In this document: positions 33,388 to 64,000 of the stretch, piece after piece
Numbering within the stretch: position 1 is the stretch's first letter
How the letters are laid out: every line of letters starts with the position of its first letter
Origin: an uncultured Myxococcales bacterium
GTDB taxonomy: Bacteria > Myxococcota > B64-G9
Assembly (NCBI GenBank): GCA_964513625.1
Contig: CAZENH010000001.1
Span: 241,642-305,641, forward strand
DNA: 64,000 nucleotides
Direction of reading: 5' to 3'
Notes under the pieces: generated by a model
What the model was told of the DNA's origin: nothing
Seen by the model: the letters and a program-made list of their open reading frames with translations, nothing else
Database searches by the model: none
Translations under genes and position numbers: made by a program

Positions 33388-33416
33388 TTGACAGGCGACT
33401 TCCGACAAACTAGGTT
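33388..33416 (+). promoter_or_regulatory. candidate sigma-70-like promoter TTGACA-17-TAGGTT upstream of the hxs-like operon
   Basis: Hexamers read directly. An AAGGGAG SD at 33441-33447 precedes ATG 33458. Confidence 0.4.
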
Positions 33417-33457
33417 TGAGCGGTTGTCGCCATGCCAAGCAAGGGAGTGCCTGTACC

Positions 33458-46195: not shown

Positions 46196-47590
46196 ATGAG
46201 GACGGCAGGAAAACGAGTGATGCTTGTCTCCCCGCCCGGCCGTTGCACGCCGCATGGCTCATTTCATGCCGTGCCTCCGGAGGGGCTGGCCAGGCTGTCT
46301 GCTTGGTTAAGAAGAGAGGGATTCTACGTCGCGACGCTCGATGTACTGATCGAGGGCTACGATCTACGGCAAGTCGAGGGAAAGACCGTCAGATACGGTA
46401 TCTCCGCAGATCAAGCTGCTTCCAGAATAGCCGAGTGGTCACCGGATTTGATTGGATTCAGTTGTCCTTTTACCTGCACTGAACCGGACCTCATCCAGAT
46501 TGCGGGAGCCTGCAAGTCGCTGCTGCCTGATGCGCCTATCGTTTTTGGAGGAGCTCACGCGGCCGCCGATGCTCTGGCCTTGCTCGAGAAGGAACCGGCG
46601 GTGGATCTCGTTGCCCTGAGCGAAGGAGAACTGGCGCTTGCTTCCCTGCTTTCAGCTATGCAAGCTGGCGGCAACCCGAACGAAGTGGACGGTTTCGCCT
46701 CGCGAAAAAGTGATGGGGGCATTCAGAAGCGACCGCTGAAGCAGTTTCTCGATCTCAACAGGCTTCCCGAGCCCGCCTGGGATCTTTTTCCCATCGACGC
46801 TTATGCCAGGGCAAACGCTCCACACGTTGGAGCGGGTTTGGGCAGACGCTATCTGCCGACCACCTGGAGCCGTGGTTGCGTCAATGCCTGCACATACTGC
46901 CTGACACCACGTCTTTGGGGTAGAGGCAACCATCGAAGGCGCCCGATAGAGAATGTACTCGATGAGGCCAGGCATTTAAGATCCGAATACGAAATCGAGG
47001 AACTGCATGTCGAGGACGACTGTCTCTTAGCGGACAAGGCCTGGTTTCATGCGATCCTGGAGGCATTATCGAGTGAAAATCTCGGCCTGCTCCTTGATTT
47101 TCCCAACGGCCTGGATGTAACAAATCTAGACAGATCAACAGCAGTCAAGTTGGCGCGGGCGGGCACGATCAGAGCCTGCCTCGTGTTCGACGCCGGCGAG
47201 CCCGAAGCTCCCTTGAAATGGGTCGGGAAGCAAGTGTCACAGGAGCAAGGCAGCGAGGCTGTGGCCATGCTGCACGATGGGGGCATCTCGTTGCTTGGTT
47301 TTTTCATGCTTGGCTTTCCGGGACAGACCATCGACGATATGCGCGCTACCGTCGACTATGCGCTCTCACTGGATCTCGATGCATTGTCCATTTTTATCGC
47401 CACTCCATTTCCCGGAACACCCCTGCATACCTATTGCGAGCGCAAGGGCCTGCTGGTGCCAGATCGTGATCTCAGGGACTATCGTTTCTCCACTGGTCAT
47501 ATTCGCACTGCTGAATTCGGCCCCGAGGACACAGAGCGGTTTCGACACGAGGGTTGGCTAGAGTTTATGAATCGGAAGAGAGCTCCTTAG
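46196..47590 (+). CDS. B12-binding (class B) radical SAM protein
   Basis: RVMLVSPPG...ATLDVL B12-domain-like N-terminus. SRGCVNACTYCLTP. Alternative start 46220. Confidence 0.8.
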   Translation: MRTAGKRVMLVSPPGRCTPHGSFHAVPPEGLARLSAWLRREGFYVATLDVLIEGYDLRQVEGKTVRYGISADQAASRIAEWSPDLIGFSCPFTCTEPDLIQIAGACKSLLPDAPIVFGGAHAAADALALLEKEPAVDLVALSEGELALASLLSAMQAGGNPNEVDGFASRKSDGGIQKRPLKQFLDLNRLPEPAWDLFPIDAYARANAPHVGAGLGRRYLPTTWSRGCVNACTYCLTPRLWGRGNHRRRPIENVLDEARHLRSEYEIEELHVEDDCLLADKAWFHAILEALSSENLGLLLDFPNGLDVTNLDRSTAVKLARAGTIRACLVFDAGEPEAPLKWVGKQVSQEQGSEAVAMLHDGGISLLGFFMLGFPGQTIDDMRATVDYALSLDLDALSIFIATPFPGTPLHTYCERKGLLVPDRDLRDYRFSTGHIRTAEFGPEDTERFRHEGWLEFMNRKRAP

Positions 47591-48468
47591 CGAGCGTCCC
47601 AACACGCCTGCAGTCCGATATCAACATCGTATTCAGGTGACCAACCCAGCGCCGCCAGCCTGGCGCAGTCTGCGCGCTCCTCACTCGGTTCATTGGGACG
47701 CATCAGATGTGGATCCTGAGTGATGTCGAGATGTTTGCCGGTAATTGCAGACAGCATCTTTGCAAGTTCGCCCGGCGATGCAGATCTGCCGCTGCCGACG
47801 TTTAGTGGACTGAAAGATCCAGAAGGCGGTGGATTCGACAGGCTTATAATAAAAGCGCTACAGACGTCATCGACGTGTATCCAGTCGCGCCGCCGATCCA
47901 GCTCTCCCAGGCGAAGGGGACCGCCTTCGCAGAAGCCCTCGATCAGGGTCGGCACGAAAAACTCATGTGAGCCTCCGGGGCCGTAAACATTGAACAAGCG
48001 CAGGCTGGTCGCTGCAATCGAAGTGTCGGCCACGGCAGTCTCGACGATTTTTTCCTGGATCAGTTTCAGCCTGCCCAGGAAAGTTGTCGGATCCAATAGA
48101 TGGTCTTCACCGATCGGCAACCTACTCGGCCTACCGTAGATTTTCCCACTAGAGGCCAGAATAACGTGCTTCACAGCGCAACTGTTTGCCAACAGCATGA
48201 CATTGGCCGTTCCAACGGCCGCGGTTTGCAGGGCTTTCAAGGGGTAGCGACTACGAAACCCGGGCGAGGCTGGAAAGGCAAGATGTACTAGCGCATCGGC
48301 CGGTGTCGAGCGGGCAAGCAGGGAGTCCAGGTCGTTAATGTCCGCCTTGATCCTGTCAAGTTCGAGCGGTTCGTGACCCGCTCTCGACAGCGCTGTCACA
48401 AGATGTCGGCCGATGAAGCCCTTCGATCCGCTGACCAGAACCCGCATCTTATGGCTACCTTTGCTCAA
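47587..48468 (-). CDS. NAD-dependent epimerase/dehydratase/reductase (extended SDR)
   Basis: MRVLVSGSKGFIGRHLV Rossmann motif, ~293 aa. Confidence 0.75.
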   Translation of the reverse strand: MSKGSHKMRVLVSGSKGFIGRHLVTALSRAGHEPLELDRIKADINDLDSLLARSTPADALVHLAFPASPGFRSRYPLKALQTAAVGTANVMLLANSCAVKHVILASSGKIYGRPSRLPIGEDHLLDPTTFLGRLKLIQEKIVETAVADTSIAATSLRLFNVYGPGGSHEFFVPTLIEGFCEGGPLRLGELDRRRDWIHVDDVCSAFIISLSNPPPSGSFSPLNVGSGRSASPGELAKMLSAITGKHLDITQDPHLMRPNEPSEERADCARLAALGWSPEYDVDIGLQACWDAR

Positions 48469-49441
48469 GGGTTACTATTGAGCGCCAGTATTCCAATACA
48501 TCCCGTAATGTCTGTTCGAAGGAGATCTCGGGTCTCCAGCCTGTCAAATCGCTGAAAGGTTCGGTATCAGCCTCAAGACGCATTGGTTCAGTGAGTCTGA
48601 CCAGCGCCGGGTCAGTCTCGATGCTAATCACCTCTTTCTTCGGCGACAAGGACAACATTTTTTCGAGGCATTCCCTTACAGTGAGGACTTGTCGGCTGCC
48701 AATCAGGAAAAGTTCGCCCGGGGGGCACTTCTCCAGGGCAAGCCAGTAGGCCCTAACCATGTCTCTGACGTCGGTCCAGTTCCGGCGGGCGTCAAGGTTG
48801 CCAACCGTTACCACGGGTGGCGCCAGGCCGGCCTCGATCCGGGCTATCTGGAAGGCAAATGAAGGCAACGCGAAAACGCGGTCGCGGCGCGGGCCTTCGT
48901 GGTTGAATGCCCTGATGCGCACAACATGCAGGCCGTAGCTCCTGAAGTGCTCGTAGCCGAGCAGATCCTGGGCGACCTTGCTTACCGCGTAGGGATTTAC
49001 CGGACGGAGCTGAGTCTCGGGGCGGATGGGCAGTTCGGCTTCCGGGACATCGCCGTATTCCTCGCCGGAGCCGGGCAGCAGAACCCGCGTATCGACCAGT
49101 TCACACCGTCGCAGCGACTCCAACAGGTTCAAAGTACCTGTTACATTGGTGCTGAAGCACGTTTGCGGGGCTCCCCAGGACGGAGACACGAAACTCTGGG
49201 CTCCCAGGTGGAAGATCCGATCGGGTTTAACGGCAGACACAACACCATCCACAGAGAATGGATCTCCCAACTCACACAAGTGCCAGTGGATACGCGTCTC
49301 AACGTCAGTGATGTGTTCCAAAAGCGTCATTCTGGACGCCCAACGCCTGGTGGCGTGAATTTCGATCTGCGGCTTCGCAAGCAACAAATCCAGCAGGTGA
49401 CTGCCCACGAATCCGGTCGCGCCGGTAACAAGTACTTTCAT
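48455..49441 (-). CDS. GDP-sugar 4,6-dehydratase-like extended SDR (Gmd/DmhA-like)
   Basis: MKVLVTGATGFVGSHLLDLL, NPYAVSK (YxxxK). I chose start 49441, the ATGA overlap with the upstream GT2. The track's 70-aa N-terminal extension is rejected. Confidence 0.7.
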   Translation of the reverse strand: MKVLVTGATGFVGSHLLDLLLAKPQIEIHATRRWASRMTLLEHITDVETRIHWHLCELGDPFSVDGVVSAVKPDRIFHLGAQSFVSPSWGAPQTCFSTNVTGTLNLLESLRRCELVDTRVLLPGSGEEYGDVPEAELPIRPETQLRPVNPYAVSKVAQDLLGYEHFRSYGLHVVRIRAFNHEGPRRDRVFALPSFAFQIARIEAGLAPPVVTVGNLDARRNWTDVRDMVRAYWLALEKCPPGELFLIGSRQVLTVRECLEKMLSLSPKKEVISIETDPALVRLTEPMRLEADTEPFSDLTGWRPEISFEQTLRDVLEYWRSIVTLEQR

Positions 49442-50181
49442 GACCGTCTTCCCATCAGCATCATGAGATCCATGAAAATTGCAGCCACCTCGGCCGGGTG
49501 CGGCAGGTGGCCGAACGGGCCAAGTCCGATTTCGAAACGGGTTGTTCCACCCGGGCGCGTGAGGTGGGTAACGGGAATTTCGACCAGTTTGGCTCGTTTC
49601 GAAATGGCCCGCATGAGAATCTCCGCGTTGATCACGCCCGTTCGACATTGTAACGGAGTGGTTCCGATAACATCACTATGCACCAACTTGAAGGCACAGT
49701 CGAGATCCCTTACTCCGCGAATACCCAAAAGCCGCGTCGCCAGGCTGGAGTAAAGATTTCCGGCCAGCCTGCGCGCCAGCGGATCGCTCCGCACACGCCT
49801 GTACCCGACGATTAGGTCGGCCCCATTGGTTTCGGCGGCCAGCCTGGATAGTTCAGCATGATCGAATTGTCCGTCGGCGTCGGTGAGCAGCAGCCAGGGA
49901 TATCGTGCCGCGGCGATGCCCAGGGCAAGCGCGCGTCCATATCCGGGATCGTCAACGGGTTGCCAGATTGTGCGCACCTTGCTGTGACCAGCTGCCATTT
50001 CTCTTGCCACCTCGGGCGTTCCATCTTCGGCCGCCAGGCTTGAAACCAGTAGTATCTCCCAGTCCTCGGAAGCGCAGCCTGTCAAGGCTTCTTCCAGGTC
50101 TTCCGTAACACTCGAAAGGTCGCGAGCTTCCTCGAAACACGGCAATACCGCGCTGACCTGGATGTCATCTCTCTTCGACAT
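49438..50181 (-). CDS. GT2 polyprenyl-phosphate sugar synthase-like (DPM1/ArnC-like), second copy
   Basis: VSAVLPCFEEARDL, LLTDADGQFD, DCAFKLV. Confidence 0.7.
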   Translation of the reverse strand: MSKRDDIQVSAVLPCFEEARDLSSVTEDLEEALTGCASEDWEILLVSSLAAEDGTPEVAREMAAGHSKVRTIWQPVDDPGYGRALALGIAAARYPWLLLTDADGQFDHAELSRLAAETNGADLIVGYRRVRSDPLARRLAGNLYSSLATRLLGIRGVRDLDCAFKLVHSDVIGTTPLQCRTGVINAEILMRAISKRAKLVEIPVTHLTRPGGTTRFEIGLGPFGHLPHPAEVAAIFMDLMMLMGRRS

Positions 50182-51712
50182 TGATCAGCGGCTTGGATCT
50201 TGGGCGATACAGGAAGATGACGTCCGGACGGTCTGCAAAGGGCGCGAAGTAGTGTTCGATGCCCTTCTCGCTCAGATCTGCATGGATATTGCCGCCTTCC
50301 TCGGCAATAAAGAGCCTGCCTTCACCGGCGCGCCAGCGCTCGTTGGACATCTCATACACCAGGTCAACCAGTCTGCCAGATGCCTTGGCCGACAGATCGT
50401 TGAAGTATAGGTTGAGAAGCCATGCGTAAAGGGCTTCCGTTTTTTCGATGAACACCTTCTCATGTTCCGGCACCTTCAAGACGGTGGTGGTCGAGTAATC
50501 GGGAGGAACCAGTGAATCATCCATTAGCCCCTGGGACACGCAGGTACGGTACAGTTGAGTTCCTGGAAAAGGATACATGATGGACGGGCGAACCGAGTCG
50601 AAACCCAGATCGGCACATAGTCGAACAGTGGCCAGGATCTCTTCGCGAGTCTCAGTCGGCATGCCCAACATTACATATGCACGTGTGTTGACTCCAAGCT
50701 TGCGCAGCAATGCAACTGCCTTTCGTAATCGGTTTTCTGACAGTTCCCGGGCCAGGATTTGTTTACGAACTCTTTCTGATCCGCTTTCCACGCCGAATTT
50801 TACCATGTAGCACCCAGCCTCCGAGAGCAGGCGAGCCATTTTCTCGTCCAGGTGTCCGGCAATGGCGTTGCAGACGAAAGGTAGTCCAATCTTTTCGGTA
50901 TAGGCTGAGGAAAACTCAGTCAGCCACTCGTGACTGGATGCAAATCGATCGTCCCCGAAGTTGAAGGCCTTGAGAACATCGGGATATCTCTCCTTGAATA
51001 CCTCGAGTTCACCAATCACGTCCTCTACCGAGCGTTGCCGACAGTAGGCCGATGCACTGAGCTTGCCCGGTGTAAGTCTGCGCAGCGTATCGAGGATTGC
51101 CGCGTTGTGGCAATAGTTGCACTTCATCGGGCAGCCGCGGCCCACGATGGTCTCGGCGAAGCCGCGGTTGGCCCGGATGATGGCGGAATAGTCGATGCCG
51201 TCGAAGAATGGCCATGATTGTCTTGTAATATCGGGCAAGAAGGCCATGGGGTTTCGATGAATTATACCGTTTTCCTTGACCCAGAAGTTCGGCACCGAAA
51301 GATGGTCGTGACCGCCTTGCAGCGAAGAGACGAATCGCGCGAGCAGTCCATCTACTTCTCCCAGTCCGACGAAATCAACGGACGGGTGTGAAAGAACCGC
51401 CTCCGCGTTCAACGTCGTGTGCACGCCGCCGCAGAGCACCTTGCAGGTCGAATCCAGCCTCTTGACCAGCGAGGCCATCTTCATGGCCGCGGGATAGTGG
51501 TTTTGCCCGAAGGAAAGAGCGTGCAGTTCGAATGATCCCTTCTCGAAGAAGGCGCGCAAGCGTTCTTCTTCAAATGGCATCCCAACGGTTTCGTTCAGGT
51601 GAAGTAAGGTGACGTCATGCCCCGCCTCGGCCAATTCGCGGGCCAGCAGGGACGCCCCAACGCTCATACCGGGGGGCGCTGACAGATTGAACCAGTGAAA
51701 GCAGATCTTCAT
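50165..51712 (-). CDS. B12-binding radical SAM protein, paralog 1 of 3 in tandem
   Basis: MKICFHWFNLS...LLARELAEAGHDVTLLHLNE. GRGCPMKCNYCHN. Confidence 0.8.
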   Translation of the reverse strand: MKICFHWFNLSAPPGMSVGASLLARELAEAGHDVTLLHLNETVGMPFEEERLRAFFEKGSFELHALSFGQNHYPAAMKMASLVKRLDSTCKVLCGGVHTTLNAEAVLSHPSVDFVGLGEVDGLLARFVSSLQGGHDHLSVPNFWVKENGIIHRNPMAFLPDITRQSWPFFDGIDYSAIIRANRGFAETIVGRGCPMKCNYCHNAAILDTLRRLTPGKLSASAYCRQRSVEDVIGELEVFKERYPDVLKAFNFGDDRFASSHEWLTEFSSAYTEKIGLPFVCNAIAGHLDEKMARLLSEAGCYMVKFGVESGSERVRKQILARELSENRLRKAVALLRKLGVNTRAYVMLGMPTETREEILATVRLCADLGFDSVRPSIMYPFPGTQLYRTCVSQGLMDDSLVPPDYSTTTVLKVPEHEKVFIEKTEALYAWLLNLYFNDLSAKASGRLVDLVYEMSNERWRAGEGRLFIAEEGGNIHADLSEKGIEHYFAPFADRPDVIFLYRPRSKPLINVEER

Positions 51713-53265
51713 GACTCACCCGGTTCCATGTCTGCATTCGGAAGACCGACCGGTTCGCCTGTGTACAAGAAGGTCACGTCGGGTCTCTCGGGAAAGGGAT
51801 TGAAGTAGTGCTCGATCTCTTGGGTACGCAGCTTTCTGGTCAGAGCGAGCGAAGACGAGCGGATCCAGTTGCGTGTCTCTTGGGTTGCCCACTCGCTTTC
51901 CGGCATGGCCAAAGCTCGGCCAAGCAGAGGCCCGTATTCCCGGCCGCAGTTCTCGCTCAAATAGACGTTCTGCATCCAGGGGTGTAAAAGGTGTACTTTG
52001 TCGATCAGCAGGGCCATCTCTGCATTCCAGCGCAGAACGGACAGGTCGTCGTAATTTTCATACTCACGACCGGTCAGCAGAGAATCCCGAACACAACGCT
52101 CGTAGATCGGAGTTCCCTCGACCGGATAGAAGATACACAGCCGGGTGGAAGTCGCCTTCAGCCTGGCGGCGAAGCGGAAAGTGGACAGGATCTCGTCGCG
52201 GGTCTCGGTTGGATTGCCCACCATAAGGTAGATACGTGTCGGCACGTTGTGGGCCTTGAGGCGCGCAATGGCATGCTCGATCGTCGCCTGGTCGAAAGAC
52301 TTGCCAAGAATCGTGGTACGGATACGCTCGCTGCCGGATTCCACTCCGATCTTGGTAATTGCCCCAGAGCGCGCCAGCGCCGCAGCCAGTTCATCGTCGA
52401 CGCCGTCGACCAGGAGGTTGCAAGTGTAGGGCAAGTCGAAGCGCTCGGCGTATCCGCGGCAAAAGTTCAGCATCCACTCGCGGTCGAAATTGACCGCGTC
52501 GTCCGCCAGCGAGAACATCTTTACTTGTTCCCCGAAGCGCTCAAGGATCATCTGCATCTCACCGAAGAGATTTTCCAGGCCCCGCTTGCGGCAATAGGGC
52601 ATGCTCTTGCCGCCCGCGGGCAACCTGCACCTGTATGTGTCCCGCAGGACCTGGTTGAAACAGAAGCTGCATCGATTGGGACAGCCTCGTCCGGTAATCA
52701 CCTCGAACATCCCCCGGTTGAGCGCAAGTGAAGGACCGTAATCGACGTGATCCAGGTCGATCCAGGTTTGCTCGCGGATGTCGGGCAAAGGCGCCATTGA
52801 ATTGCGCCAGATGCGACCGGCGCGCTTTCCCCAGAATCCGGGAAGACTCGATACGTCCAGGCCCTGCTCAAGTCTGGCGACGAAGTCCGCCAGCAGACCG
52901 TCGACCTCGCCGATGAAGAGATAGTCGACTCCATCCAGCTCAAGGACCTGCTCTGGAAACAACGTTGGATGTACCCCGCCACACAAAAAGGGGACTTCGG
53001 GCAGCGAGTTTCTCAACTTCGGCAAGAGCGCCTCGACATGGGGAAGGTGATTACGCCCGAAAGACAGGGCGACGAGCCCGGGATCGAATTGACGGATACT
53101 ATCGATAATCTCATTCGGCTCGAAGGACATGCCTACCTGCTCGTTCAGGTGCAGGACCGATACCTGGTGGCCCGCCTCGCTCAGCTCCCGTGCTAGAAGT
53201 GACACGCCTATGTTCATCTTGGGCGTGCAGTTCAGGTTGAACCATACAAGCTGGACGCGCATCAC
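51709..53265 (-). CDS. B12-binding radical SAM protein, paralog 2 of 3
   Basis: MMRVQLVWFNLN...LLARELSEAGHQVSVLHLNE. GRGCPNRCSFCFN. ATGA overlap with paralog 1. Confidence 0.8.
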   Translation of the reverse strand: MMRVQLVWFNLNCTPKMNIGVSLLARELSEAGHQVSVLHLNEQVGMSFEPNEIIDSIRQFDPGLVALSFGRNHLPHVEALLPKLRNSLPEVPFLCGGVHPTLFPEQVLELDGVDYLFIGEVDGLLADFVARLEQGLDVSSLPGFWGKRAGRIWRNSMAPLPDIREQTWIDLDHVDYGPSLALNRGMFEVITGRGCPNRCSFCFNQVLRDTYRCRLPAGGKSMPYCRKRGLENLFGEMQMILERFGEQVKMFSLADDAVNFDREWMLNFCRGYAERFDLPYTCNLLVDGVDDELAAALARSGAITKIGVESGSERIRTTILGKSFDQATIEHAIARLKAHNVPTRIYLMVGNPTETRDEILSTFRFAARLKATSTRLCIFYPVEGTPIYERCVRDSLLTGREYENYDDLSVLRWNAEMALLIDKVHLLHPWMQNVYLSENCGREYGPLLGRALAMPESEWATQETRNWIRSSSLALTRKLRTQEIEHYFNPFPERPDVTFLYTGEPVGLPNADMEPGES

Positions 53266-53275
53266 AGCCGACCCT

Positions 53276-54835
53276 TCATGATTCCACCCGTTGGTCGTCG
53301 ACGTTGATCAGGTGGCGGCGCCTATCGATTCTCAGAAAGGCCCAGTCCGGACGCTCCGGGAAGGGCGCAAAATAGTGGGGTTGACCCTCGCGTGTCAGGC
53401 TCTTTTGAAGAACGCGGACGCGGTTGAAGAGCGTTTCTTTATACAGCGGATCATGCGCGCTACCCGAGGCGGGCGAGAGGGCCCAGGCGAGCAGATCGCT
53501 GGTCCGAGATCCAACCGGCTCGTCCAGGTGCTGGTTCACCAGCCATGGATACACAAGAAGAGTCTTGTCGAGGAAGACGCGCATTTCATCGGGCCATTTC
53601 AGAACCGACTGCTCGAGAAAACCGTACACGGCCTCAGTCTGCACAACAAGGCCGCTCCGGGCAAGCTCTGTGTATATCTCGGTGCCAGGGAAGGGGCAGA
53701 ACATGGCAACACGCACTGCATCAGGTCTAAGATCGGCGCAAAAATGGAAGGTAGCCAGTACATCGTCTTGCGTTTCGGTGGGAATGCCCACCATCAGGTA
53801 GGCCATGGTGTTGATTCCGTGCATCTTCAGGTGCCCGAAAGCTCTGCGTATGGTCACCTCGTCGAAGGGACGCCCCAGAACCTGCTTGCGGATCCGCCCC
53901 GGTGCGCACTCCACGCCCAGCTTGATCATGTTGCAGCCAGCCTTGTCGAGTAAAGCGGCGCTCTCGGCGTCTATTCGATCCGCCGTAGCGTTGGCAATGA
54001 ACGGCAAACCGATCTCGGCCGGGTAACGCTCGGCAAACTCGGCCAGCCAAGCCTTGTCGAACGCCAGGCGATCGTCACCGAACATGATCGCCTTTAGAGA
54101 CGGCGCGCGGGAGCGCATTTCCTTCAACTCGGTCAGCAGGTTGTCGATCGATCGCAGGCGGACATAGGGCCATGATGCAGGGCTGCCGCCCAGGCTTTCC
54201 CTGTAGCGTTTTACAAGGGCATGATTTTGGCAAAAGCGGCAATGGAAAGGGCAGCCACGGCCGGCGATGATCTCTCCGAAGCCGCGCTTGGCTATAACGA
54301 ACCGCTCGAAATCAATCGCTTCAAAAAGGGGCAGCGCTTGGTTCTCGATGCAGGGCAGGGGAGCCAGGTGGTTGCGATGCTCTCCACGTTCGTCCTTGAC
54401 CCAGAAGCCTCCGACCGAGGCCGTGTCGTCGCCCCGCTCCATACGGCTTACGAACTCTACGAACTGGCCCCCGTCCAACTCGCCAATCCCCACAGCATCG
54501 ACTTCCTCCCAGCCAAATATTTCATCCGGGTTGAGCGTGGCATGGATGCCGCCACAAACAATGGCGGCCTCGGGCAGGGCGGATCGCGCCTCGCTGACCA
54601 GTCGGTGGGCCAGGGCTGCGTGTGAGCTGAGAAACGAAAACGCTACCAGCCCGGGAGAAAGATTTGCCAGTTCGCAGGCCAAACGGCCGGGATCCGCGGG
54701 AAAGCCAAGATCCTCGTTGAGATGAAGAACATCGACCTCGTGGCCGGCCGCCTGCAACTCGCGCGCCAGGATCAATACTCCATGGCTGATTCCCGCCTGG
54801 CCGGCGGTGTTGATCCAAACAAAAGCGATTTTCAT
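53276..54835 (-). CDS. B12-binding radical SAM protein, paralog 3 of 3
   Basis: MKIAFVWINTAG...ILARELQAAGHEVDVLHLNE. GRGCPFHCRFCQNH. Confidence 0.8.
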   Translation of the reverse strand: MKIAFVWINTAGQAGISHGVLILARELQAAGHEVDVLHLNEDLGFPADPGRLACELANLSPGLVAFSFLSSHAALAHRLVSEARSALPEAAIVCGGIHATLNPDEIFGWEEVDAVGIGELDGGQFVEFVSRMERGDDTASVGGFWVKDERGEHRNHLAPLPCIENQALPLFEAIDFERFVIAKRGFGEIIAGRGCPFHCRFCQNHALVKRYRESLGGSPASWPYVRLRSIDNLLTELKEMRSRAPSLKAIMFGDDRLAFDKAWLAEFAERYPAEIGLPFIANATADRIDAESAALLDKAGCNMIKLGVECAPGRIRKQVLGRPFDEVTIRRAFGHLKMHGINTMAYLMVGIPTETQDDVLATFHFCADLRPDAVRVAMFCPFPGTEIYTELARSGLVVQTEAVYGFLEQSVLKWPDEMRVFLDKTLLVYPWLVNQHLDEPVGSRTSDLLAWALSPASGSAHDPLYKETLFNRVRVLQKSLTREGQPHYFAPFPERPDWAFLRIDRRRHLINVDDQRVES

Positions 54836-54964
54836 CTGCCCCTGCTTCGATGTTGTGGACGCATGTAATGTACTTTGACATCCATACTCTAGTCATGGCA
54901 AGCACCTTGCAATTAAATCAATTTTGACCAAGATTACCAGACATCGGTTGTCTAACATGCGGCT

Positions 54965-56419: not shown

Positions 56420-56471
56420 CGCCAAATACGCAACTGAACTGTTAATCACCTTGTAGGTGGCTATTCCTGGT

Positions 56472-56501
56472 TTGACAGTCGGCGCGTGTGCCCGATATTA
56501 T
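56472..56501 (+). promoter_or_regulatory. candidate promoter TTGACA-18-TATTAT upstream of the gmhA-like gene
   Basis: Read directly. A GGAGG SD at 56516-56520 precedes GTG 56531. Confidence 0.3.
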
Positions 56502-56530
56502 CCATAATCAAAACCCGGAGGATTTCTGAA

Positions 56531-57133
56531 GTGATAGAGCAGTTTGCAAGTGATTTCCTAGCTCGGATAAGCAATGCGCTGGCCGAGGTTCAACTAGCTG
56601 ATATCAACGACATCGTTCAGACGATTATTCGGGCTTTTCGGGACGGAAACGCGGTTTATATCATGGGTAACGGCGGGAGTTCCGCGACCGCGTCTCACCT
56701 GGCCTGCGATCTTTGCTATGCCGAATGCAGGACAAACAGTTTTAGCGTGGCATGCCTGAGCGACAATGTGCCACTGCTCACGGCCCTAGGAAACGATCTT
56801 GGATATTACGATGTATTCAGTGGCCAACTAGATCGACTGCTCGGTGCCGGTGATGTCGTGATCGTTCTTTCTGTTTCGGGAGATTCGGAGAATATTCTGA
56901 GAGCGGCGACAACCGCGCGCAAACACGGCGCAGCGTCTATCGGCTTTCTGGGGTCGAACGGCGGGAGGGCACGAGCATTGCTCGACCACAGCATAGTGCT
57001 GACAAGTGCAGATTTCCCGGTTGTGGAAAGTGTGCACTGTGTGCTGATGCAAATGGTGGCAAACGTGTTCCGACGTTGCATCGTGGATAGGCCCGATTAT
57101 TTTCCCGGCGGCGATCTCGATGCTCAAAATTGA
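56531..57133 (+). CDS. gmhA: SIS-domain sedoheptulose-7-phosphate isomerase-like (GmhA-like)
   Basis: VYIMGNGGSSATASHLACDL and GDVVIVLSVSGDSENILRAA are SIS signatures. I chose GTG 56531 (SD 9 nt upstream) over the track's 56486 start, which would run through the promoter. Confidence 0.7.
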   Translation: MIEQFASDFLARISNALAEVQLADINDIVQTIIRAFRDGNAVYIMGNGGSSATASHLACDLCYAECRTNSFSVACLSDNVPLLTALGNDLGYYDVFSGQLDRLLGAGDVVIVLSVSGDSENILRAATTARKHGAASIGFLGSNGGRARALLDHSIVLTSADFPVVESVHCVLMQMVANVFRRCIVDRPDYFPGGDLDAQN

Positions 57134-57149
57134 TTCCGCGAGGTGATAC

Positions 57150-58820
57150 GTGCCGGTGGTCCTGGGACTCCACGCTTTCGGTCATGAGGCCGGAGCTTGC
57201 CTGGTGGCGCCCGATGGACTCCGGGCGCTAAGCGAGGAACGCCTGAGCCGCGTCAAGTATGACGGTGCATTTCCGAAAAAAGCCATTGAATGGGTGCTTG
57301 AGGCGTCTGGAGTAGGCGATCTCGAAAAAGTAGACCTAGTAGTCTATGATTTGCTCGAGCGAGCAGGTCCCAGGGTTATAGAGAATTTGAGGCAACTGGG
57401 ATACCTGGGAGAGATAAGGGCTCTTCGACACCACGAGGCTCACGCCGCCTCTGCTTTTTTTGTAAGCCCGTTTGAAGAAGCCACGGTGTTTACTATTGAT
57501 GCCGGCGGAACTCGCGAGGGCGAGGAGGGGCCCGGAGTTCAACCTTCAGCCCGACAACTGGATCACCCGATGCGACGCGAGGTTCAGGCCGTCTTCTACG
57601 GTCAGGGGCACGATATACGGACGCTAAGACGAACTGTCGTGGCTCCTCCGTGGACAATAAACCCCGGCGTTTTCTATGGACTTGCCTCTGAGTTTCTGGG
57701 TTTCGGTCAGATGGGAGCTGGAAAAGTCATGGGCTTATCCGCCTTCGGCGGAAAGGACGTTCATTTCAGAAAACCGTTTTTCGAAGATATCGCTGAAGAT
57801 CCTCTGGCACGCTGTCCCACGAAAGACCCTCTCCAGGAGTCCGTACTGCATTCATATCTTCCCACTGTTTTCGGCGGAACACCGCCGAGGAAAAGGCACG
57901 AACAAATCGACGCCCGGTACCGGGACATCGCAGCTTACGTTCAGGCCGAATGTCAGCGGGCAGTTGTTTCTTTTCTTCGAAATCTGGCATCTTCTGCGCC
58001 TTCTACAAATCTTTGCATGGCCGGAGGATTCGCACTTAATGCCATCAGCAATACAGCGATTCTCGGACAAACGCCGTTTAAGAGTCTTTTCGTCCAACCG
58101 GCGGCAACCGACGCCGGGATCCCACTCGGCTGTGCCCTGTGGGGTTACCATGTCGTTCTGGGACAGGAACGCCGATTCGAAATGCGTACCGCCGATCTTG
58201 GGGGCGCATATACGATCCACGAGATCCAGAGAGCCATCGGCGAGCGTTCTGGAATAATCGTCAGGCGCATCGATGCCATTGAGCACAAGGCGGCCGAGGA
58301 ACTGGCTGCAGGAAAAATCATCGGCTGGTTGCAGGGGCGCAGCGAGTTTGGACCCAGAGCGCTCGGCCACCGCAGCATTTTCGCCGATCCGCGCAATGTT
58401 CGATCAGTGTCCAGGCTCAATGAAGAGATAAAATTCCGGGAATCGTTCCGGCCCTACGCACCGATGGTATTGGAGGAGGCGGCAAAGAAATACTTTGATC
58501 TTCCGGAAAGCAGTCCATTTATGTTGCTGATTGCCCCGGTTAGGCAGGAGTGGCGCTCGAAGCTTCCCGCTGTCACCCATGTGGACGGGACGGCCCGGAT
58601 TCAAACAGTCTCCGAGGGAGACGAACCCGGGCTGTTCAGATTGCTGAAAGAGTTCGAACGACAATCCGGATGCCCCGTGCTGCTGAATACGAGTTTCAAC
58701 CGGGCAGGGGAACCCATCATCGAGAGCCCAACCGATGCCTTGGACGTTTTCCTGGCAACGGATTTGGAAGCGTTGGTTATGGAGGACTTTTGGATAGAAA
58801 AAGAGCACGTATACGAATAG
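57150..58820 (+). CDS. NodU/CmcH-family O-carbamoyltransferase
   Basis: N-terminal VVLGLHAFGHEAGACLVAPDG (ASKHA/Carbam_trans_N-like). C-terminal domain with PVLLNTSFNRAGEPI. ~556 aa. GAGGTGA SD. Confidence 0.8.
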   Translation: MPVVLGLHAFGHEAGACLVAPDGLRALSEERLSRVKYDGAFPKKAIEWVLEASGVGDLEKVDLVVYDLLERAGPRVIENLRQLGYLGEIRALRHHEAHAASAFFVSPFEEATVFTIDAGGTREGEEGPGVQPSARQLDHPMRREVQAVFYGQGHDIRTLRRTVVAPPWTINPGVFYGLASEFLGFGQMGAGKVMGLSAFGGKDVHFRKPFFEDIAEDPLARCPTKDPLQESVLHSYLPTVFGGTPPRKRHEQIDARYRDIAAYVQAECQRAVVSFLRNLASSAPSTNLCMAGGFALNAISNTAILGQTPFKSLFVQPAATDAGIPLGCALWGYHVVLGQERRFEMRTADLGGAYTIHEIQRAIGERSGIIVRRIDAIEHKAAEELAAGKIIGWLQGRSEFGPRALGHRSIFADPRNVRSVSRLNEEIKFRESFRPYAPMVLEEAAKKYFDLPESSPFMLLIAPVRQEWRSKLPAVTHVDGTARIQTVSEGDEPGLFRLLKEFERQSGCPVLLNTSFNRAGEPIIESPTDALDVFLATDLEALVMEDFWIEKEHVYE

Positions 58821-58827
58821 AATTGCG

Positions 58828-59958
58828 TTGTTTGGCTATTGGGAGAGTTGCAGCATGCGTGTTCTGTTAGTCGGAGGCATACCCATGCGGCTCCATCGGG
58901 GGCCGGTAGACTGGGCTGGACACCACTTCGAGGCTATCAGGCACGTTTTTGATCGCATCGTAGTTATGGAGCACATGGAAGCATGCGAAAGGGTCACGCT
59001 GGATCAGAAGGCTCTGAGTGACTTTGTCGAATCCACTCGCGACTACGATGCCGTATTTTGCGAGACGCCAGAAGCCTTACTGCTATTTCAGGAATGGAAG
59101 AAACGGGGTGATTCTCCCATTGCACTGCTCGCCCTGGAGGTACACGGGCTTACACGGGTGGCGGCAATGCGCGAGTGGTATCTCGAACACGAAGGCCATG
59201 ACCCCTGGCCGGGGATGGCTCGAGCTCCCTGGATCGCCTGGATAGCGGCCAGTTCGGTCCAGGGCGATATCCTGCTTAAAGCCGGAGTACCCCCTGAGAG
59301 CATCAGGCGTATCAATGCGGGCACTATTGCATATTCCACCTTCTTGCCGAATGCAGATGCCTTACTCGACGGTGGCACACAAGTGGACGGAGAAGCTGCG
59401 TTCGGATTACCGGCTGATGGGGTTGTCGTGCCTGGATCGGGTCGGCGTGACCGGGAGTGTAGCCTCAAGGCTGCCAGGGCGTTGCCCGGTCTTCCCTTCG
59501 CGATCGTTGACGAACAGGCAGCCGGTCAACGCCGGCGTCTGGCCGGGACCGGGCTGCTTGAACTTCCCAACGTGCGCTGGCTGAAGGCACTTGCGCTGGA
59601 GAGATATATCGCTCTGATCAAGCGTGCCAGACTGGTGGTCGTGGCTCTACAACCCGGCACCGGTGACGGCGGGCACACGACCGTCGCGTTGGCCCACAGG
59701 CTGGGAGCGACTGTTATTTGCAGCGATGTGCCGGGAATCGCAGATTATGTTGAAGATGGATACAACGCAAGGCTCGTGAAGGCTGCAGATCCCGACAGTT
59801 TGGCCGAAGCGATAAGTAATTTATGGAAGGATAGCGATGAGCGCAACCGCCTCGCACAAAACGGACGCCTTACCGAGGTTGCGCGCGCCCGGGAGTGCCA
59901 GCACGAATTCTTGCAAACACTGGAATCAGTGGCGGCGGTTCTAAGAAAGGAATTTTAG
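58828..59958 (+). CDS. GT4-like glycosyltransferase (low similarity). Probable start at MRVLLVGG, 58855.
   Basis: GT-B-like C-terminal half (...GATVICSDVPGIADYVEDGYNARLV...ERNRLAQNGR...). Confidence 0.45.
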   Translation: MFGYWESCSMRVLLVGGIPMRLHRGPVDWAGHHFEAIRHVFDRIVVMEHMEACERVTLDQKALSDFVESTRDYDAVFCETPEALLLFQEWKKRGDSPIALLALEVHGLTRVAAMREWYLEHEGHDPWPGMARAPWIAWIAASSVQGDILLKAGVPPESIRRINAGTIAYSTFLPNADALLDGGTQVDGEAAFGLPADGVVVPGSGRRDRECSLKAARALPGLPFAIVDEQAAGQRRRLAGTGLLELPNVRWLKALALERYIALIKRARLVVVALQPGTGDGGHTTVALAHRLGATVICSDVPGIADYVEDGYNARLVKAADPDSLAEAISNLWKDSDERNRLAQNGRLTEVARARECQHEFLQTLESVAAVLRKEF

Positions 59959-61385
59959 TTGTGGAGCTACTTGTTCTCACGCCCCCCGATTTTATTTTCA
60001 GAAAAGCAGACGAGGTTACGCCCACTTATAGTGAAGAACGCAACATTCCCTACGGTGCACTGACTTTAGTGAGCTTTCTAAGAGAGCATGGAATTCGGGC
60101 CATGGTGGCTCCCCTGCGGGAGTTCTATCAGGAGACTGGTTGTTTCACGCATTTTGATGAAGGTACGCCTGAATCGAGGAAAGTCTTCGAGCAAAAGACT
60201 TCGCAGATCCTGGGCAACTTGCTGCGTCGCTTGCATCCTGGGGCAATAGGTTTGTCGGTAAACTTTGCCATTCACCAATTGGCTGCGGAAATCATTATCG
60301 ATCAGATCCGTGCACTGGCTCCAAATCTACCGGTGATCATCGGTGGAAATCATGCAACCCACACAGCAGAACACTGGCTGACACGTGAGAACCCGGTGGA
60401 TTTTGTTGTCCTCGGTGAAGGTGAGCAGACTTGTCTGAAACTGCTTCAGTCGGAATTCAAGCCGGGCGATCTTTCCGGATTAGCCAGGCGACGTGATGAT
60501 GGAAGCGTAGAAATAGGTGAACGACCGAAACGCCTCACTGTGGCGCAAATCTCGGTGCCGCTGAACCTTGAACTCGTCGCTTTACCGCGCTGGGCTCCTC
60601 TGAGCAGTCAGAAACACTGGGTTGGACTTAGTCGGGGATGTAACTGGAACTGTGCCTTTTGCACTAGTCATTCGATGTGGGGCCGGCAGCGTTACCGAAA
60701 ACCGGAAGCTGTTGCCTCCGAGATCGATCGCGTCGTTACAGCGGGTGCAAAACGAATCATTTTCAGCGACGACATGCTCAACCCGGGTTCACGCAGGTTC
60801 CAGGGTCTGCTTGAGGTGCTGCAGGGTTTTCGCGATTGCAGCTTCTCCACCATGATCCGCATGGACCTGTTGGAACGCACAGACCTCAAGGCGCTTGCTG
60901 GAGCCAATATTGATTACGTATACCTCGGTGTGGAGAGTTTCTCCGTGCCGGTACTTGAAGCGATGAACAAGAAGGCCCGCCTTGTCGATAAGAGTGCCGT
61001 CGAATCACTGATGAAGAGAATCAAGGCTGCTGGCATGAAGACAATCATGTTCATGTTGATCGGCCACCCGGGCAGCAACTTCGAGCAGGACATGAACTCA
61101 GCCCGCTTTTGCCGCAAGCTGGTCGACCTGGGCTTGGTATCCGTGGTGTTTCCTGCCCACATCGCTCCTTTTCCGGGCACGGCGATAGCGGCCATGGAGC
61201 AGAAAGGAGCCTTCAGAGTAGTCGAAACACGGATGAATCGCTGGACTCTCTGGCGTCCGAATATCGAGCTTCTGGATTCGTCCGGTCGAGTGAATTATTC
61301 GGCCGAGGAAATGCAGACAGTCTTCGATGAGTATCTCGATTGCTGGTACGAACATGGGCTCGGAAATTCCGGTGTAACAGGGTAG
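59895..61385 (+). CDS. B12-binding radical SAM protein, paralog of 54965..56419
   Basis: LVLTPPDF...ERNIPYGALTL...MVAPLREFYQ. SRGCNWNCAFCTS. The likely real start is GTG 59961, just after the upstream TAG. Confidence 0.8.
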   Translation: MPARILANTGISGGGSKKGILVVELLVLTPPDFIFRKADEVTPTYSEERNIPYGALTLVSFLREHGIRAMVAPLREFYQETGCFTHFDEGTPESRKVFEQKTSQILGNLLRRLHPGAIGLSVNFAIHQLAAEIIIDQIRALAPNLPVIIGGNHATHTAEHWLTRENPVDFVVLGEGEQTCLKLLQSEFKPGDLSGLARRRDDGSVEIGERPKRLTVAQISVPLNLELVALPRWAPLSSQKHWVGLSRGCNWNCAFCTSHSMWGRQRYRKPEAVASEIDRVVTAGAKRIIFSDDMLNPGSRRFQGLLEVLQGFRDCSFSTMIRMDLLERTDLKALAGANIDYVYLGVESFSVPVLEAMNKKARLVDKSAVESLMKRIKAAGMKTIMFMLIGHPGSNFEQDMNSARFCRKLVDLGLVSVVFPAHIAPFPGTAIAAMEQKGAFRVVETRMNRWTLWRPNIELLDSSGRVNYSAEEMQTVFDEYLDCWYEHGLGNSGVTG

Positions 61386-61405
61386 CCTGAACTCAAGTCT
61401 AATCA

Positions 61406-62716
61406 ATGATTGCTAGAAGCCAACTGCAAAACGATTTGGAACCTATTCTACTGGAGTCGGGCCTGCCCCCGGCGGGAGTCGAAATCCTGATCAATTTGGC
61501 CCTTGGCTCGGCCCGCATGGAAGATCTCAAAAACAATGCCAAGTTGCTGCCGTCGGAAGATCTGGGTGAATACGTTTCGATGCTGGAAAAAAGAAAATTG
61601 ATCAGTTCAAGCGTGGACGACGATGGACGGTTTAAGCTGGTCGAATCAGAAGAGCTGTTCGCAAGACTGCCGGGTCCGGCCGGGGCTCGACTTGTGTTGT
61701 TGGCCACCCAGGCACAGCGAGAGTTCGTTGGAGGCATGACGATCAACCCGGCCATGCCGATAGGTGACACACGACTCTTGAGTCCTTTCGAAGCATACAG
61801 AAATACACTTGATGCTCGCCTGCCGCAGGTGGAAATCAAGGTACAGACTTCGTGCAATATCGGCTGCCTCTATTGCTTCATCCGCAAAGATCCAAGAGAT
61901 ACGCTCGACACGGTAGTGGCTCGGACCGGGATAGAACGCGCCAGAAGCGGAGGCGTCGAGCGTCTGATCCTGACAGGGGGCGAACCAACGTTGCGCAAGG
62001 ACTTGCCAGAACTAATACGGCATGCCCGCGAACGTGGTTTCGTAGATGTGCAGTTGTTTACAAATGGTCTGATTTTTGCGTACGCCGATCGGCTGGACGC
62101 CTGCATACGGGCCGGACTGACTTCAGTGGTTCTGCATGTATCTTCCGTCGACCGGAATATATATGCTCGTCTGACGGGCAGAGACCACCTGGAGACGGTC
62201 AAGCAAGCGATGCACAACCTGGCTCGCTACCCGCAACTCGAGATGGCGATAGTAACAGTCATTAACCGTCTCAACATACATAACTTGGCAGAGACCATCG
62301 ATTTCTTCCGGGACTGGCAGGAAAAAACCCACTTTGCATGGTTTGCCAATGAGATTCCATTTTGCTGCGTGTATTCCCGTGCCTGGGATAACAGGGACAA
62401 GGTTCTCATGCCGATAGAACAAGCATTGGGAGTCCTTGAAGCAATTGTTAGAGAGCACGACGGCGAGACATGGCCCTTGCTATTTTATGGAATTCCATAT
62501 TGTCTGTTGCCGGGGCTGGAGAGCAATAGTTATGATCTCTACTTCACCATGGCTCGTCAGTTACTACCCGAAAAAAACTTTGACTACACTTTTCTAGATG
62601 CCATGTTTCTCAAGTCTGATAAATGTCGAAGGTGCAGGCACGAACCGTATTGCCTGGGGATCTCGCGCGGTTACGCTCGTCTGTACGGCAGCGATATCTT
62701 ACAGCCCGTCATTTGA
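61406..62716 (+). CDS. radical SAM protein with a ~140-aa N-terminal non-catalytic domain and a C-terminal Cys-rich tail
   Basis: QTSCNIGCLYCFI. C-terminal CCVYSRAW...CLLPG...KCRRCRHEPYC. Confidence 0.7.
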   Translation: MIARSQLQNDLEPILLESGLPPAGVEILINLALGSARMEDLKNNAKLLPSEDLGEYVSMLEKRKLISSSVDDDGRFKLVESEELFARLPGPAGARLVLLATQAQREFVGGMTINPAMPIGDTRLLSPFEAYRNTLDARLPQVEIKVQTSCNIGCLYCFIRKDPRDTLDTVVARTGIERARSGGVERLILTGGEPTLRKDLPELIRHARERGFVDVQLFTNGLIFAYADRLDACIRAGLTSVVLHVSSVDRNIYARLTGRDHLETVKQAMHNLARYPQLEMAIVTVINRLNIHNLAETIDFFRDWQEKTHFAWFANEIPFCCVYSRAWDNRDKVLMPIEQALGVLEAIVREHDGETWPLLFYGIPYCLLPGLESNSYDLYFTMARQLLPEKNFDYTFLDAMFLKSDKCRRCRHEPYCLGISRGYARLYGSDILQPVI

Positions 62717-64000
62717 GCGTGAATCAGGTTCGCCTGCACAGAGCCAGCGGGCGGCACTGAGCATGTCTGTAAAGCTCCATACCGGCCGGGACGGAAAGCG
62801 CTCGTCGCGGCAGCCCGCGCCGGTCTCCAGGCCGATCGCGGCCAGCCCTGCGTTGTGGGCCAGTTGCATATCCACCGAACGATCTCCGATGACAACCGTC
62901 CTCCAGGCCGGCACTCCCAGGTCGGCCAGGGCCGAGCGCGCCATCCCGACCGCCGGCTTTCGGCACTTGCACGGACCACGCAGGTCGGAATCACCTTCCG
63001 GATGATCTGTCTCCGGGTGGTGCGGGCAGAAATAAATCCTGTCGAGATGCGCGTCTTCGAGCGCAAGCAATTCATCCAGACGCTCGTGGATCAAGCCCAA
63101 CTCGTGCAAAGAACACAATCCCCTGGCCACTACGGGCTGATTCGTAGTCAAGGCGACCTTGATACCCGCTTGGTTCAGCAGACGAAGACCCTTCGCGGCC
63201 CCGGGAAGCAGGCTCAACTTGTCGACTTCGTGCAGCAGGCCTACGTCCTCGATCAGCGTACCGTCACGATCCAACAGCACCATCTCTGCCCTGAGCTTTG
63301 TCTTTCCGCTCGCAACGTCATGAACAATTGAGTTTAACCGTGCGGGTGTGCCTATGTCCCGGACGTATTCAGATGACCTATAGCCGAAGATCGGTTCGCG
63401 CGCTTCGATCATGGCGGGCAGTATCTCGCCAAATAAATCACTTGGACGCCCGCGCGGAACACGTCGCAGAATATCTTTGTGAAACACCGCTACGGCCGAG
63501 TTGGTCAGCGTACTGTCCGTTACTACTTCGCCCTTGTGCCCGCCATTTCTGCCGATCCAGCCGATGACTCGGTTTCCATCGTCCAAGGACAGCCGATCGC
63601 TGTCCTGCGGGTGGCTGGAGCGATGCACCAGCAAGGTGGCCAGGCCCAGGTTGGCCTCGGCCGCCTGTGAGAGGCGCTTCCAGTCGAGACAGGTAAAGAT
63701 ATCTCCGAATACCAACATGAATCGTTCAGCTAACCTGTCGGCGACACCTTGCAAAGCCCCGGCGGTACCACGCGGCTGAGGCTCGATAATTGTCTCGACA
63801 TCCATGCCGGGAGGGGCGAGATGGCGTGCCTCGGCGGACACCTGCTCGCCCCCCAGGCCGGCAAGCAGCAAAGCCTGCTTGGCGCCCGCCGTGTGCAACT
63901 CGTTCAGCAGATGCGCAAGCAAGGGCCGTCCATCAATGGGTGTCAGCACCTTGGGCAGATCGCCTGTTTTAGGCTTAAGGCGCAGCCCTGGTCCACCGCA
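62699..64000 (-). CDS. bifunctional sugar-1-phosphate nucleotidyltransferase (HddC-like) and HAD-IIIA heptose bisphosphate phosphatase (GmhB-like). The N-terminus lies beyond the window end.
   Basis: The frame continues upstream of the track's GTG start as CGGPGLRLKPKTGDLPKVLTPIDGRPLL (G-x-G-x-R-L-x-P-x-T nucleotidyltransferase motif). C-terminal half has VLLDRDGTLIEDV and FCPHHPE (GmhB/HisB-N HAD motifs). Confidence 0.7.
   Translation of the reverse strand, partial: CGGPGLRLKPKTGDLPKVLTPIDGRPLLAHLLNELHTAGAKQALLLAGLGGEQVSAEARHLAPPGMDVETIIEPQPRGTAGALQGVADRLAERFMLVFGDIFTCLDWKRLSQAAEANLGLATLLVHRSSHPQDSDRLSLDDGNRVIGWIGRNGGHKGEVVTDSTLTNSAVAVFHKDILRRVPRGRPSDLFGEILPAMIEAREPIFGYRSSEYVRDIGTPARLNSIVHDVASGKTKLRAEMVLLDRDGTLIEDVGLLHEVDKLSLLPGAAKGLRLLNQAGIKVALTTNQPVVARGLCSLHELGLIHERLDELLALEDAHLDRIYFCPHHPETDHPEGDSDLRGPCKCRKPAVGMARSALADLGVPAWRTVVIGDRSVDMQLAHNAGLAAIGLETGAGCRDERFPSRPVWSFTDMLSAARWLCAGEPDSRSNDGL

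Follow-up and report, generated by a model that had tools for sequence, protein, structure and literature searches.

A stretch of 64,000 nucleotides from an uncultured Myxococcales bacterium (contig CAZENH010000001.1), referred to here as the window, encodes between 47.6 and 64 kb an SIS-domain isomerase, a sugar-1-phosphate nucleotidyltransferase fused to a HAD-IIIA phosphatase (the fusion protein), and two short-chain dehydrogenase/reductase (SDR) proteins, set among glycosyltransferase and radical S-adenosylmethionine (rSAM) genes. The genes of this module recur as syntenic blocks in at least nine independent Myxococcota loci (Myxococcota/Polyangia); hence, their association is not a matter of chance. 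On balance, we lean towards the view that they form a myxobacterial module for the activation and tailoring of a sugar that follows nucleotide-heptose logic. An earlier reading of the window, made from its letters, had proposed that the four gene products make a nucleotide-activated 6-deoxyheptose in the manner of DmhA/DmhB-type pathways. All four were found where this sequence-only reading had placed them. The 6-deoxyheptose scheme as a whole stood in part: the protein families and the synteny agree with it, whereas the kinase, the residues of the SIS protein, the C4-reductase step, and the equivalog cut-offs do not.

Conserved synteny and domain fusions

Domain assignments were made with Pfam and NCBIfam on the large open reading frames (ORFs) across the window, and structures were compared against the PDB. 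Synteny was evaluated by scoring 19 fusion-bearing genome loci against the proteins of the window. The nearest genomes were Myxococcota/Myxococcales metagenome-assembled genomes (MAGs) at 85-86% identity, followed by genomes of Polyangia, Acidobacteriota, and Bradymonadales. A contig 100% identical to the window (L002) carries its sequence 1.9 kb past position 64000, and context farther out was taken from the relatives at 85-86% identity (the 86% relative being L006/L008). Gene calls in two other assemblies of the same organism agreed with the earlier start coordinates, except for the second SDR, whose start was corrected by these independent calls to 48447 (286 aa) instead of 48468.

The block composed of the SIS gene, a GT2 glycosyltransferase gene (247-aa type), the GMD-like SDR gene, and the second SDR gene was present in L012, L014, L019, L020, L021, and L025, and the GT2 gene always stood between the SIS and dehydratase genes in related loci. 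A second pair, a GT2 gene of the 236-aa type followed by the fusion gene, was found in 13 of the 19 scored loci, that is, in most of the full-length ones. L012 has the fusion gene, a B12-binding rSAM (B12-rSAM) gene, and the SIS, GT2, dehydratase-like SDR, and second SDR genes on one strand as an unbroken run, and the SIS gene comes immediately after the fusion gene in L009. A member of the rSAM family represented by three paralogs in the window adjoins the SIS or fusion gene in L010, L012, and L018. The GMD-like SDR is the most conserved protein of the module, with 70-76% identity across Myxococcota. The carbamoyltransferase gene occurs in five related loci and not in the 86% relative; it is accessory.

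Domain fusions link the same partners. Among the nearest 50%-identity representatives of the SIS protein, relatives are fused to HAD (P0129, P0142, and P0176), to a GHMP-kinase C-terminal domain (P0145), to NTP_transferase (P0174 and P0206), and also to GT4. All fused relatives carry an H-D-E-H-H pattern that matches the active site of the stand-alone proteins. The recurrent synteny and these independent fusions give strong support to the central idea of the sequence-only reading, namely that the genes belong to one heptose-type nucleotide-sugar pathway.

The fusion protein and the SIS isomerase

The fusion gene (62699 to 64000 and beyond, minus strand) extends past the window, and its frame begins CGGPGLRLKPKT. 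According to L002, the full-length protein has 443 aa, of which the N-terminal 10 residues lie outside the window, and it consists of an N-terminal NTP_transferase domain and a C-terminal HAD-IIIA domain. The nucleotidyltransferase motif lies upstream of the annotated start, as had been noticed before, with CGGPGLRLKPKT opening the frame. The GGxGxRL, Lys, and DxGTP motifs of nucleotidyltransferases are represented by CGGPGLRLKPKT, K27, and VRDIGTP, and are invariant in the family. Across 26 fusion homologs, the elements GG..R, K27, DRDG, NQ, C-x-H...C-x-C-R-K-P, and GD...D are all invariant. The top family of the nucleotidyltransferase domain was mannose-1-phosphate guanylyltransferase (103 bits), and its top structures were those of HddC (5xhw/6jq8), covering residues 6-130 only. 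The fusion architecture is widespread, with at least 1,597 proteins matching at E ≤1e-10. No description of a nucleotidyltransferase-HAD fusion protein of this kind, or of an rSAM-rich heptose cluster, was found in the literature.

The HAD domain retains motifs I-IV (LLDRDGT, TTNQ, CRKP, and GDRSVD) and the CxH...CxC zinc loop (FCPHH...PCKC). It scored above the cut-offs of TIGR01656 (114 bits, cut-off 84) and TIGR01662 (97 bits, cut-off 45). Against the GmhB models, the scores were 127.6 (PRK08942) and 91 bits, both under the respective cut-offs of 178 and 149.6; against the HisB models, they were 56-61 bits (hisB_Nterm, 56). The structure comparison gave the same order, with 86.8 bits for Escherichia coli GmhB and 54 bits for HisB. 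The domain thus appears to be GmhB-like rather than HisB-like, as had been proposed from the letters, and a histidinol phosphatase was rejected because of the lower HisB scores in both models and structures.

The SIS gene (56531..57133, plus strand; 200 aa) encodes a GmhA-like SIS_2 isomerase of an H-D-E-H subfamily, with Gln at the fourth position in the window's clade. It matched Pfam SIS_2 (PF13580) with 57 bits, and its top NCBIfam model was gmhA TIGR00441 (97.9 bits). All 15 of its 15 PDB matches were phosphoheptose isomerases or DiaA, the top one being GmhA of Burkholderia pseudomallei (about 96 bits). With gmhA leading in NCBIfam and phosphoheptose isomerases leading in the PDB, the protein groups with GmhA and not with KpsF/GutQ. 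An arabinose-5-phosphate isomerase of the latter type was rejected, since no such model or structure was among the matches, and DiaA was rejected in view of the sugar-operon context and the domain fusions.

The two SDR proteins

The first SDR (48455..49441, minus strand; 328 aa) is an extended SDR of the GDP-sugar 4,6-dehydratase-like type. It matched PF16363 (GDP_Man_Dehyd) with 237.7 bits (3e-70) and carries the S/E and YxxxK residues as well as GSGEEYG, NPYAVSK, RRWASRM, and NHEGPRR. The RRWxSRM loop and the NHEGPRR motif, which in their shared form read RRW..M and H-x-G/S-P-R-R, are common to the GMD 1db3 and the Campylobacter jejuni GDP-heptose 4,6-dehydratase 7us5, and are absent from the RMDs 2pk3 and 6x3b. 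Furthermore, as the sole hint at a substrate preference, the protein scored 162 bits against the C. jejuni heptose dehydratase versus 129 bits against E. coli GMD. Because of the motifs shared with GMD and the higher score to the heptose enzyme, a predicted dehydratase role is reasonable.

The second SDR (47587..48447, minus strand; 286 aa) is related to RMD and matched the extended-SDR epimerase family. Its NAD-binding glycines (GxxGxxG), Ser, and Lys are intact. The sequence-only reading had cast it as the reductase that follows dehydration, a role considered below.

A predicted lipid-carrier branch

Two GT2 proteins accompany the module. One (49438..50181, minus strand; 247 aa) is similar to ArnC and DPMS, which are polyprenyl-phosphate sugar synthases. 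The other, of 236 aa, lies past the window in L002, where its gene is translationally coupled to, and overlaps, the start of the fusion gene, and where a multi-pass PMT_2 GT-C glycosyltransferase is its divergent neighbor (both within 4079-5869 of L002). For both GT2s, ArnC, DPMS, and GtrB were the top solved structures, matched over residues 2-215. With lengths of 236 and 247 aa, the two proteins lack the C-terminal transmembrane (TM) helices. The likeness to ArnC/DPMS/GtrB, together with the adjacent GT-C, points to a polyprenyl-phosphate-linked sugar exported from the cytoplasm. Judged by these similarities, the sugar is probably carried on polyprenyl phosphate and delivered outside the cytoplasm, rather than being part of a classical capsule or O-antigen repeat unit.

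Evidence that weighs against the proposed heptose pathway

Several results count against the proposed pathway, one of which is the kinase. The sequence-only reading had seen no GHMP heptose kinase, and the present search agrees: no GHMP/PfkB kinase was found in the 64-kb window by Pfam on the large ORFs scanned or by a six-frame motif scan. The suggestion that the gene might lie outside the window did not hold. There was no kinase in the 1.9 kb that L002 adds, and the 86% relative (L006/L008) had none in the 10 kb past its fusion gene. In no Myxococcota locus examined was there a GHMP/PfkB motif closer than 10 kb to the fusion gene; the motif scans, which took in the window, L002, and 19 related loci, are crude, and a divergent kinase could slip through. 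The kinase is therefore consistently missing from the module and not merely out of the window, which leaves one obligatory step without a candidate. A GHMP kinase stands beside the same type of fusion only in the Acidobacteriota locus L015 and in the P0080 locus (gene table), more distant loci that count in favor of the pathway. All-against-all clustering of the ORFs from 15 loci revealed no recurrent unassigned family able to be a new kinase. An ORF of 332 aa in the window (39316-40314, minus strand) was rejected as a kinase: it had no Pfam or NCBIfam match, and its N-terminal signal peptide and many cysteines mark it as a secreted protein. Its single-sequence AlphaFold model was unusable (mean pLDDT 37), and no homolog of it was found in the related loci.

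The SIS protein departs from GmhA at the active site. Aligned to B. pseudomallei GmhA, the positions H64/E68/Q175/H183 read H/D/E/Q. In GmhA, E68, Q175, and H183 (B. pseudomallei numbering) have been proposed to supply the base and the acid of catalysis and a ligand of the zinc; one proposal has E68 and Q175 as the base and the acid on zinc, and an earlier one named E68 with H183 (PMC7705670). The changes to D and E are characteristic of the subfamily. In its 114 nearest representatives, D is present in 111 and E in 112, and the last His is kept in 109. The Gln at the fourth position is common to the window, the 86% relative (L006), and a 55% relative (P0121); it is therefore a conserved feature of the clade and not an error. 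In addition, the SIS score of 97.9 bits is below the TIGR00441 equivalog cut-off of 209. The assignment as GmhA thus holds for the fold, the best matches, and the linkage to the partner genes, but not for the equivalog cut-off or the canonical zinc and catalytic residues. Canonical GmhA membership does not apply, and the altered enzyme may keep the chemistry by using other ligands.

None of the four proteins reached the equivalog cut-offs of NCBIfam (GmhA, GmhB, HddC, and Gmd). The nucleotidyltransferase domain gave 36 bits against the HddC equivalog NF049965 (cut-off 300); its description as HddC-like is borne out by the motifs and by GDP-type best matches that include the HddC structures, but the domain is far under the equivalog. 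The first SDR gave 138 bits against TIGR01472 (cut-off 415), so its description as Gmd/DmhA-like stands for the family and the dehydratase motifs but not at that cut-off, and its top solved match overall was the reductase RMD 2pk3 (199 bits). In the second SDR, the Tyr of YxxxK is replaced by Leu (T-F-L-G-R-L-K) in seven of seven orthologs, including that of the window; the others are in L012, L014, L019, L020, L021, and L025, and the family consensus is T-x-L-G-x-L-K. The proposal of a C4 reductase is therefore doubtful, and the standard reaction is unlikely for a protein with this substitution. Finally, occurrences of the GT-C gene were restricted to the lineage of the window, namely to L002, L006/L008, and L009.

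Proposed pathway and alternative explanations

In the order that we infer, the SIS protein would turn sedoheptulose-7-phosphate, or a close ketose phosphate, into an aldose 7-phosphate, from which a host kinase encoded outside the module and acting in trans would make the 1,7-bisphosphate. The HAD domain of the fusion protein would cut off the distal phosphate, and the nucleotidyltransferase domain would yield an NDP-sugar, most likely a GDP-sugar. After 4,6-dehydration by the GMD-like SDR, the product may be tailored by the Tyr-less SDR, by HpnJ/AprD4-like B12-rSAMs, and, in some lineages, by the carbamoyltransferase. The ArnC/DPMS-like GT2s would then load the sugar onto polyprenyl phosphate, and the PMT_2 GT-C encoded past the window would move it to an extracytoplasmic acceptor. 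Directly observed are the identities of the domains, the catalytic motifs preserved in the HAD, nucleotidyltransferase, and dehydratase-like domains, the synteny, and the fusions of SIS relatives; the heptose substrate, the GDP nucleotide, the sequence of reactions, the trans-acting kinase, the lipid carrier, and the rSAM chemistry are predictions.

The same logic could serve another higher-carbon or unusual sugar, as in the lincomycin GDP-octose route of LmbN/LmbP/LmbK/LmbO. The SIS protein, with its H/D/E/Q residues, would then accept some other ketose phosphate, or its product would be another epimer at C2, and activation of the resulting sugar would fall to the fusion protein. Such a substrate would suit catalytic and zinc positions unlike those of every characterized GmhA, an H-to-Q change conserved in the window's clade, and four proteins that all fall under the equivalog cut-offs. 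We nevertheless regard it as unlikely: the module holds no transaldolase or transketolase to build a longer ketose, and the H-D-E-H subfamily is large and fused to the standard partners, which fits a common substrate such as sedoheptulose-7-phosphate. If the SDR pair belonged to an ordinary 6-deoxyhexose route that starts from GDP-mannose, as for GDP-rhamnose, GDP-6-deoxytalose, or GDP-fucose, the nucleotidyltransferase would be a mannose-1-phosphate guanylyltransferase, as its 103-bit top family suggests, and the SIS protein and the HAD domain would serve elsewhere. Such a route needs no kinase, and RMD, the top solved match of the first SDR, is the reductase of the GDP-rhamnose pathway. This route is also improbable, given that it explains neither the obligate fusion to a GmhB-type phosphatase in at least 1,597 proteins nor the fixed synteny of the SIS gene with the GT2-dehydratase-SDR genes, and that the SDR scores higher against the heptose 4,6-dehydratase, with 162 bits, than against GMDs, with about 129.

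A kinase could also be dispensed with if the module were a synthase-phosphatase system, for which the glucosyl-3-phosphoglycerate and trehalose-6-phosphate systems are precedents. A GT2 would glycosylate the heptose-7-phosphate produced by the SIS protein, or another phosphorylated acceptor, with an NDP-sugar supplied by the nucleotidyltransferase domain, and the HAD domain would dephosphorylate the product. The missing kinase of all myxobacterial loci, the translational coupling of a GT2 gene to the fusion gene, and weak matches of both GT2s to glucosyl-3-phosphoglycerate synthase are in line with this scheme. ArnC/DPMS/GtrB fit the GT2s much better, however (74 versus 29 bits in NCBIfam), and polyprenyl-phosphate enzymes alone head the PDB matches; moreover, the window's lineage has a neighboring GT-C, an enzyme whose donors are lipid-linked, and in more distant loci a GHMP kinase accompanies the fusion. 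We consider the synthase-phosphatase scheme quite unlikely, and the nucleotide-heptose module remains the reading that we prefer.

Comparison with known systems

With the DmhA/DmhB nucleotide-heptose scheme, the module shares a GmhA-type SIS protein, a zinc-loop GmhB-type HAD-IIIA phosphatase, a GDP-type sugar-1-phosphate nucleotidyltransferase, and a GMD-family SDR with the dehydratase motifs of C. jejuni 7us5. Distinct from that scheme, HddA is present in no myxobacterial locus, phosphatase and nucleotidyltransferase form one protein, and the residues H/E/Q/H of GmhA are H/D/E/Q. The 'reductase' lacks the catalytic Tyr, and the scan of the large ORFs revealed no cupin-type C3/C5 epimerase. 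The surroundings of the genes are B12-rSAMs and polyprenyl-phosphate GT2s and not a capsule or O-antigen locus.

Polyprenyl-phosphate relays are known from ArnC/ArnT, in which undecaprenyl-phosphate-linked Ara4FN (Und-P-Ara4FN) goes to lipid A, and from GtrB/GtrC and the mycobacterial PpgS/Rv3779. The short GT2s, closest to ArnC/DPMS/GtrB, and the multi-pass PMT_2 GT-C encoded beside one of them resemble these relays. Unlike in the relays, the donor would be a heptose-type NDP-sugar, two such GT2s without C-terminal membrane helices occur per module, and the GT-C is confined to the window's own lineage.

Should the proposed pathway be correct, a rearranged form of nucleotide-heptose synthesis would be in use in a sizeable group of Myxococcota, with related loci in Acidobacteriota and Bradymonadales. 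The differences would be the fused phosphatase-nucleotidyltransferase, an isomerase with a different metal and catalytic set, and the lack of a dedicated kinase. The module appears to feed a lipid-carrier branch and an unusually dense set of sugar-type rSAM enzymes. Its added interest lies in the altered enzymes, the missing kinase, and the neighboring genes. The enzyme set is suited to asking how GmhA chemistry tolerates the E-to-D, Q-to-E, and H-to-Q changes, and it offers a chance to learn the role of a Tyr-less RMD-like SDR and what AprD4/HpnJ-like rSAM enzymes may do to a heptose.

Gene organization and radical SAM genes

Three transcription units make up the region from 47.6 to 64 kb. 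The first comprises six minus-strand genes, the second is a divergent plus-strand run, and the third is the convergent minus-strand fusion gene. The six genes of the first unit have ends that overlap or abut, in the order three B12-rSAM genes, GT2 gene, GMD-family SDR gene, and second SDR gene. The three paralogous B12-rSAM genes (50165..54835, minus strand; 515, 517, and 519 aa) thus run in the same direction as, and overlap, the GT2-dehydratase-SDR genes. The plus-strand operon, which holds the SIS gene, opens with a B12-binding rSAM gene of 477 aa (54986..56419). After the SIS gene come a NodU/TobZ-type carbamoyltransferase gene (57150..58820; 556 aa), a GT4/GT1-family glycosyltransferase gene (58885..59958; 357 aa), a B12-binding rSAM gene of 474 aa that is a paralog of the first one (59961..61385), and an rSAM gene of 436 aa with a MoaA/TrsS-like core (61406..62716), all on the plus strand; the last is convergent with the fusion gene and overlaps it.

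The top family of the rSAM trio was HpnJ (111 bits, cut-off 577), and the top solved structure was AprD4 (64 bits, in the rSAM core). AprD4 is the aminoglycoside C3' diol dehydratase, and HpnJ carries out the ring contraction of the hopanoid sugar. Both of these best matches of a trio co-transcribed with the GT2-dehydratase-SDR genes have a sugar ring as their substrate, and methyl transfer is the activity of neither. Their similarity to the trio is low, and the reaction type is not assignable from it. Class B methylation of the heptose, which had been suggested from the letters, is thus only one possibility for these putative tailoring enzymes.

The density of rSAM genes in the window is high, with about 15 genes between 23581 and 62716, at least seven of which have B12-binding domains. 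One protein of 749 aa (40458-42707) has two rSAM stretches. A stand-alone sugar-1-phosphate nucleotidyltransferase gene (42760-43497, plus strand; 245 aa) lies between two rSAM genes and does not belong to the conserved set; the distant P0080 locus encodes a protein of about 245 aa beside its GHMP kinase. In L010, L014, L017, L019, L020, L024, and L025, a gene for a B12-domain rSAM protein of 650 aa is located directly upstream of the GT2-fusion pair (at about 7.3-9.3 kb in L010). The position that it has in most Polyangia-type loci is taken by the GT-C gene in the window's lineage.

An HXS-type region and other neighboring genes

HXS-type (His-Xaa-Ser) genes are located 10 kb upstream of the SDR genes. 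They comprise an HxsD-like gene (33416-33883, plus strand), hxsB (34109-35590, plus strand; 519.7 bits, equivalog cut-off 370), an rSAM gene (35615-37054, plus strand), a gene for an HXS precursor of 132 aa (37109-37507, plus strand) that has a twin-arginine-like signal and closes with a series of about 19 HGS repeats and W, and a gene for an HxsC-like rSAM fused to a methyltransferase (37512-39311, minus strand). Near-identical (HGS)n-W peptides are encoded about 6 kb from the fusion gene in two Polyangiaceae-type MAGs (L019, about 17429, and L020, about 17501; both minus strand), and an HxsD-like gene is near the fusion gene in L010 (17593-18396, minus strand). Thus, at least two different gene arrangements connect the sugar module with the HXS-like one.

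HXS (HxsA-D) was described in 2026 as an antiphage system in which an rSAM-matured periplasmic effector blocks phage DNA entry; HxsA of that system carries five repeats together with a peptidoglycan-binding domain (PMC13128918). The genes of the window resemble that system in the HxsB protein, which is over the cut-off, the HxsD-like protein, the HxsC-like rSAMs, and the His-Xaa-Ser precursor. They differ from it in that the precursor is short, with its HGS repeats and twin-arginine-like signal, and for known HXS no association with sugar genes has been reported. The repeated co-location raises the testable idea that envelope glycans and a defense system cooperate. A more specific scheme, in which the PMT_2 GT-C would put a lipid-linked, rSAM-tailored heptose-type sugar, outside the cytoplasm, on the serine-rich (HGS)n peptide of the neighboring HXS-like genes or another envelope target, is very improbable, and an HGS peptide as the final acceptor is speculation. 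If true, it would join a new sugar pathway with a periplasmic effector that rSAM enzymes mature and that belongs to the type recently shown to keep phage DNA from entering.

Farther upstream lie a gene for a GAF-domain sigma-54 activator (13069-15087) and, next to it, one for a protein of 1123 aa (15157-18528) with 13 MopE-type metal-binding repeats. A gene for a MopE-like protein also adjoins hxsD in L007.

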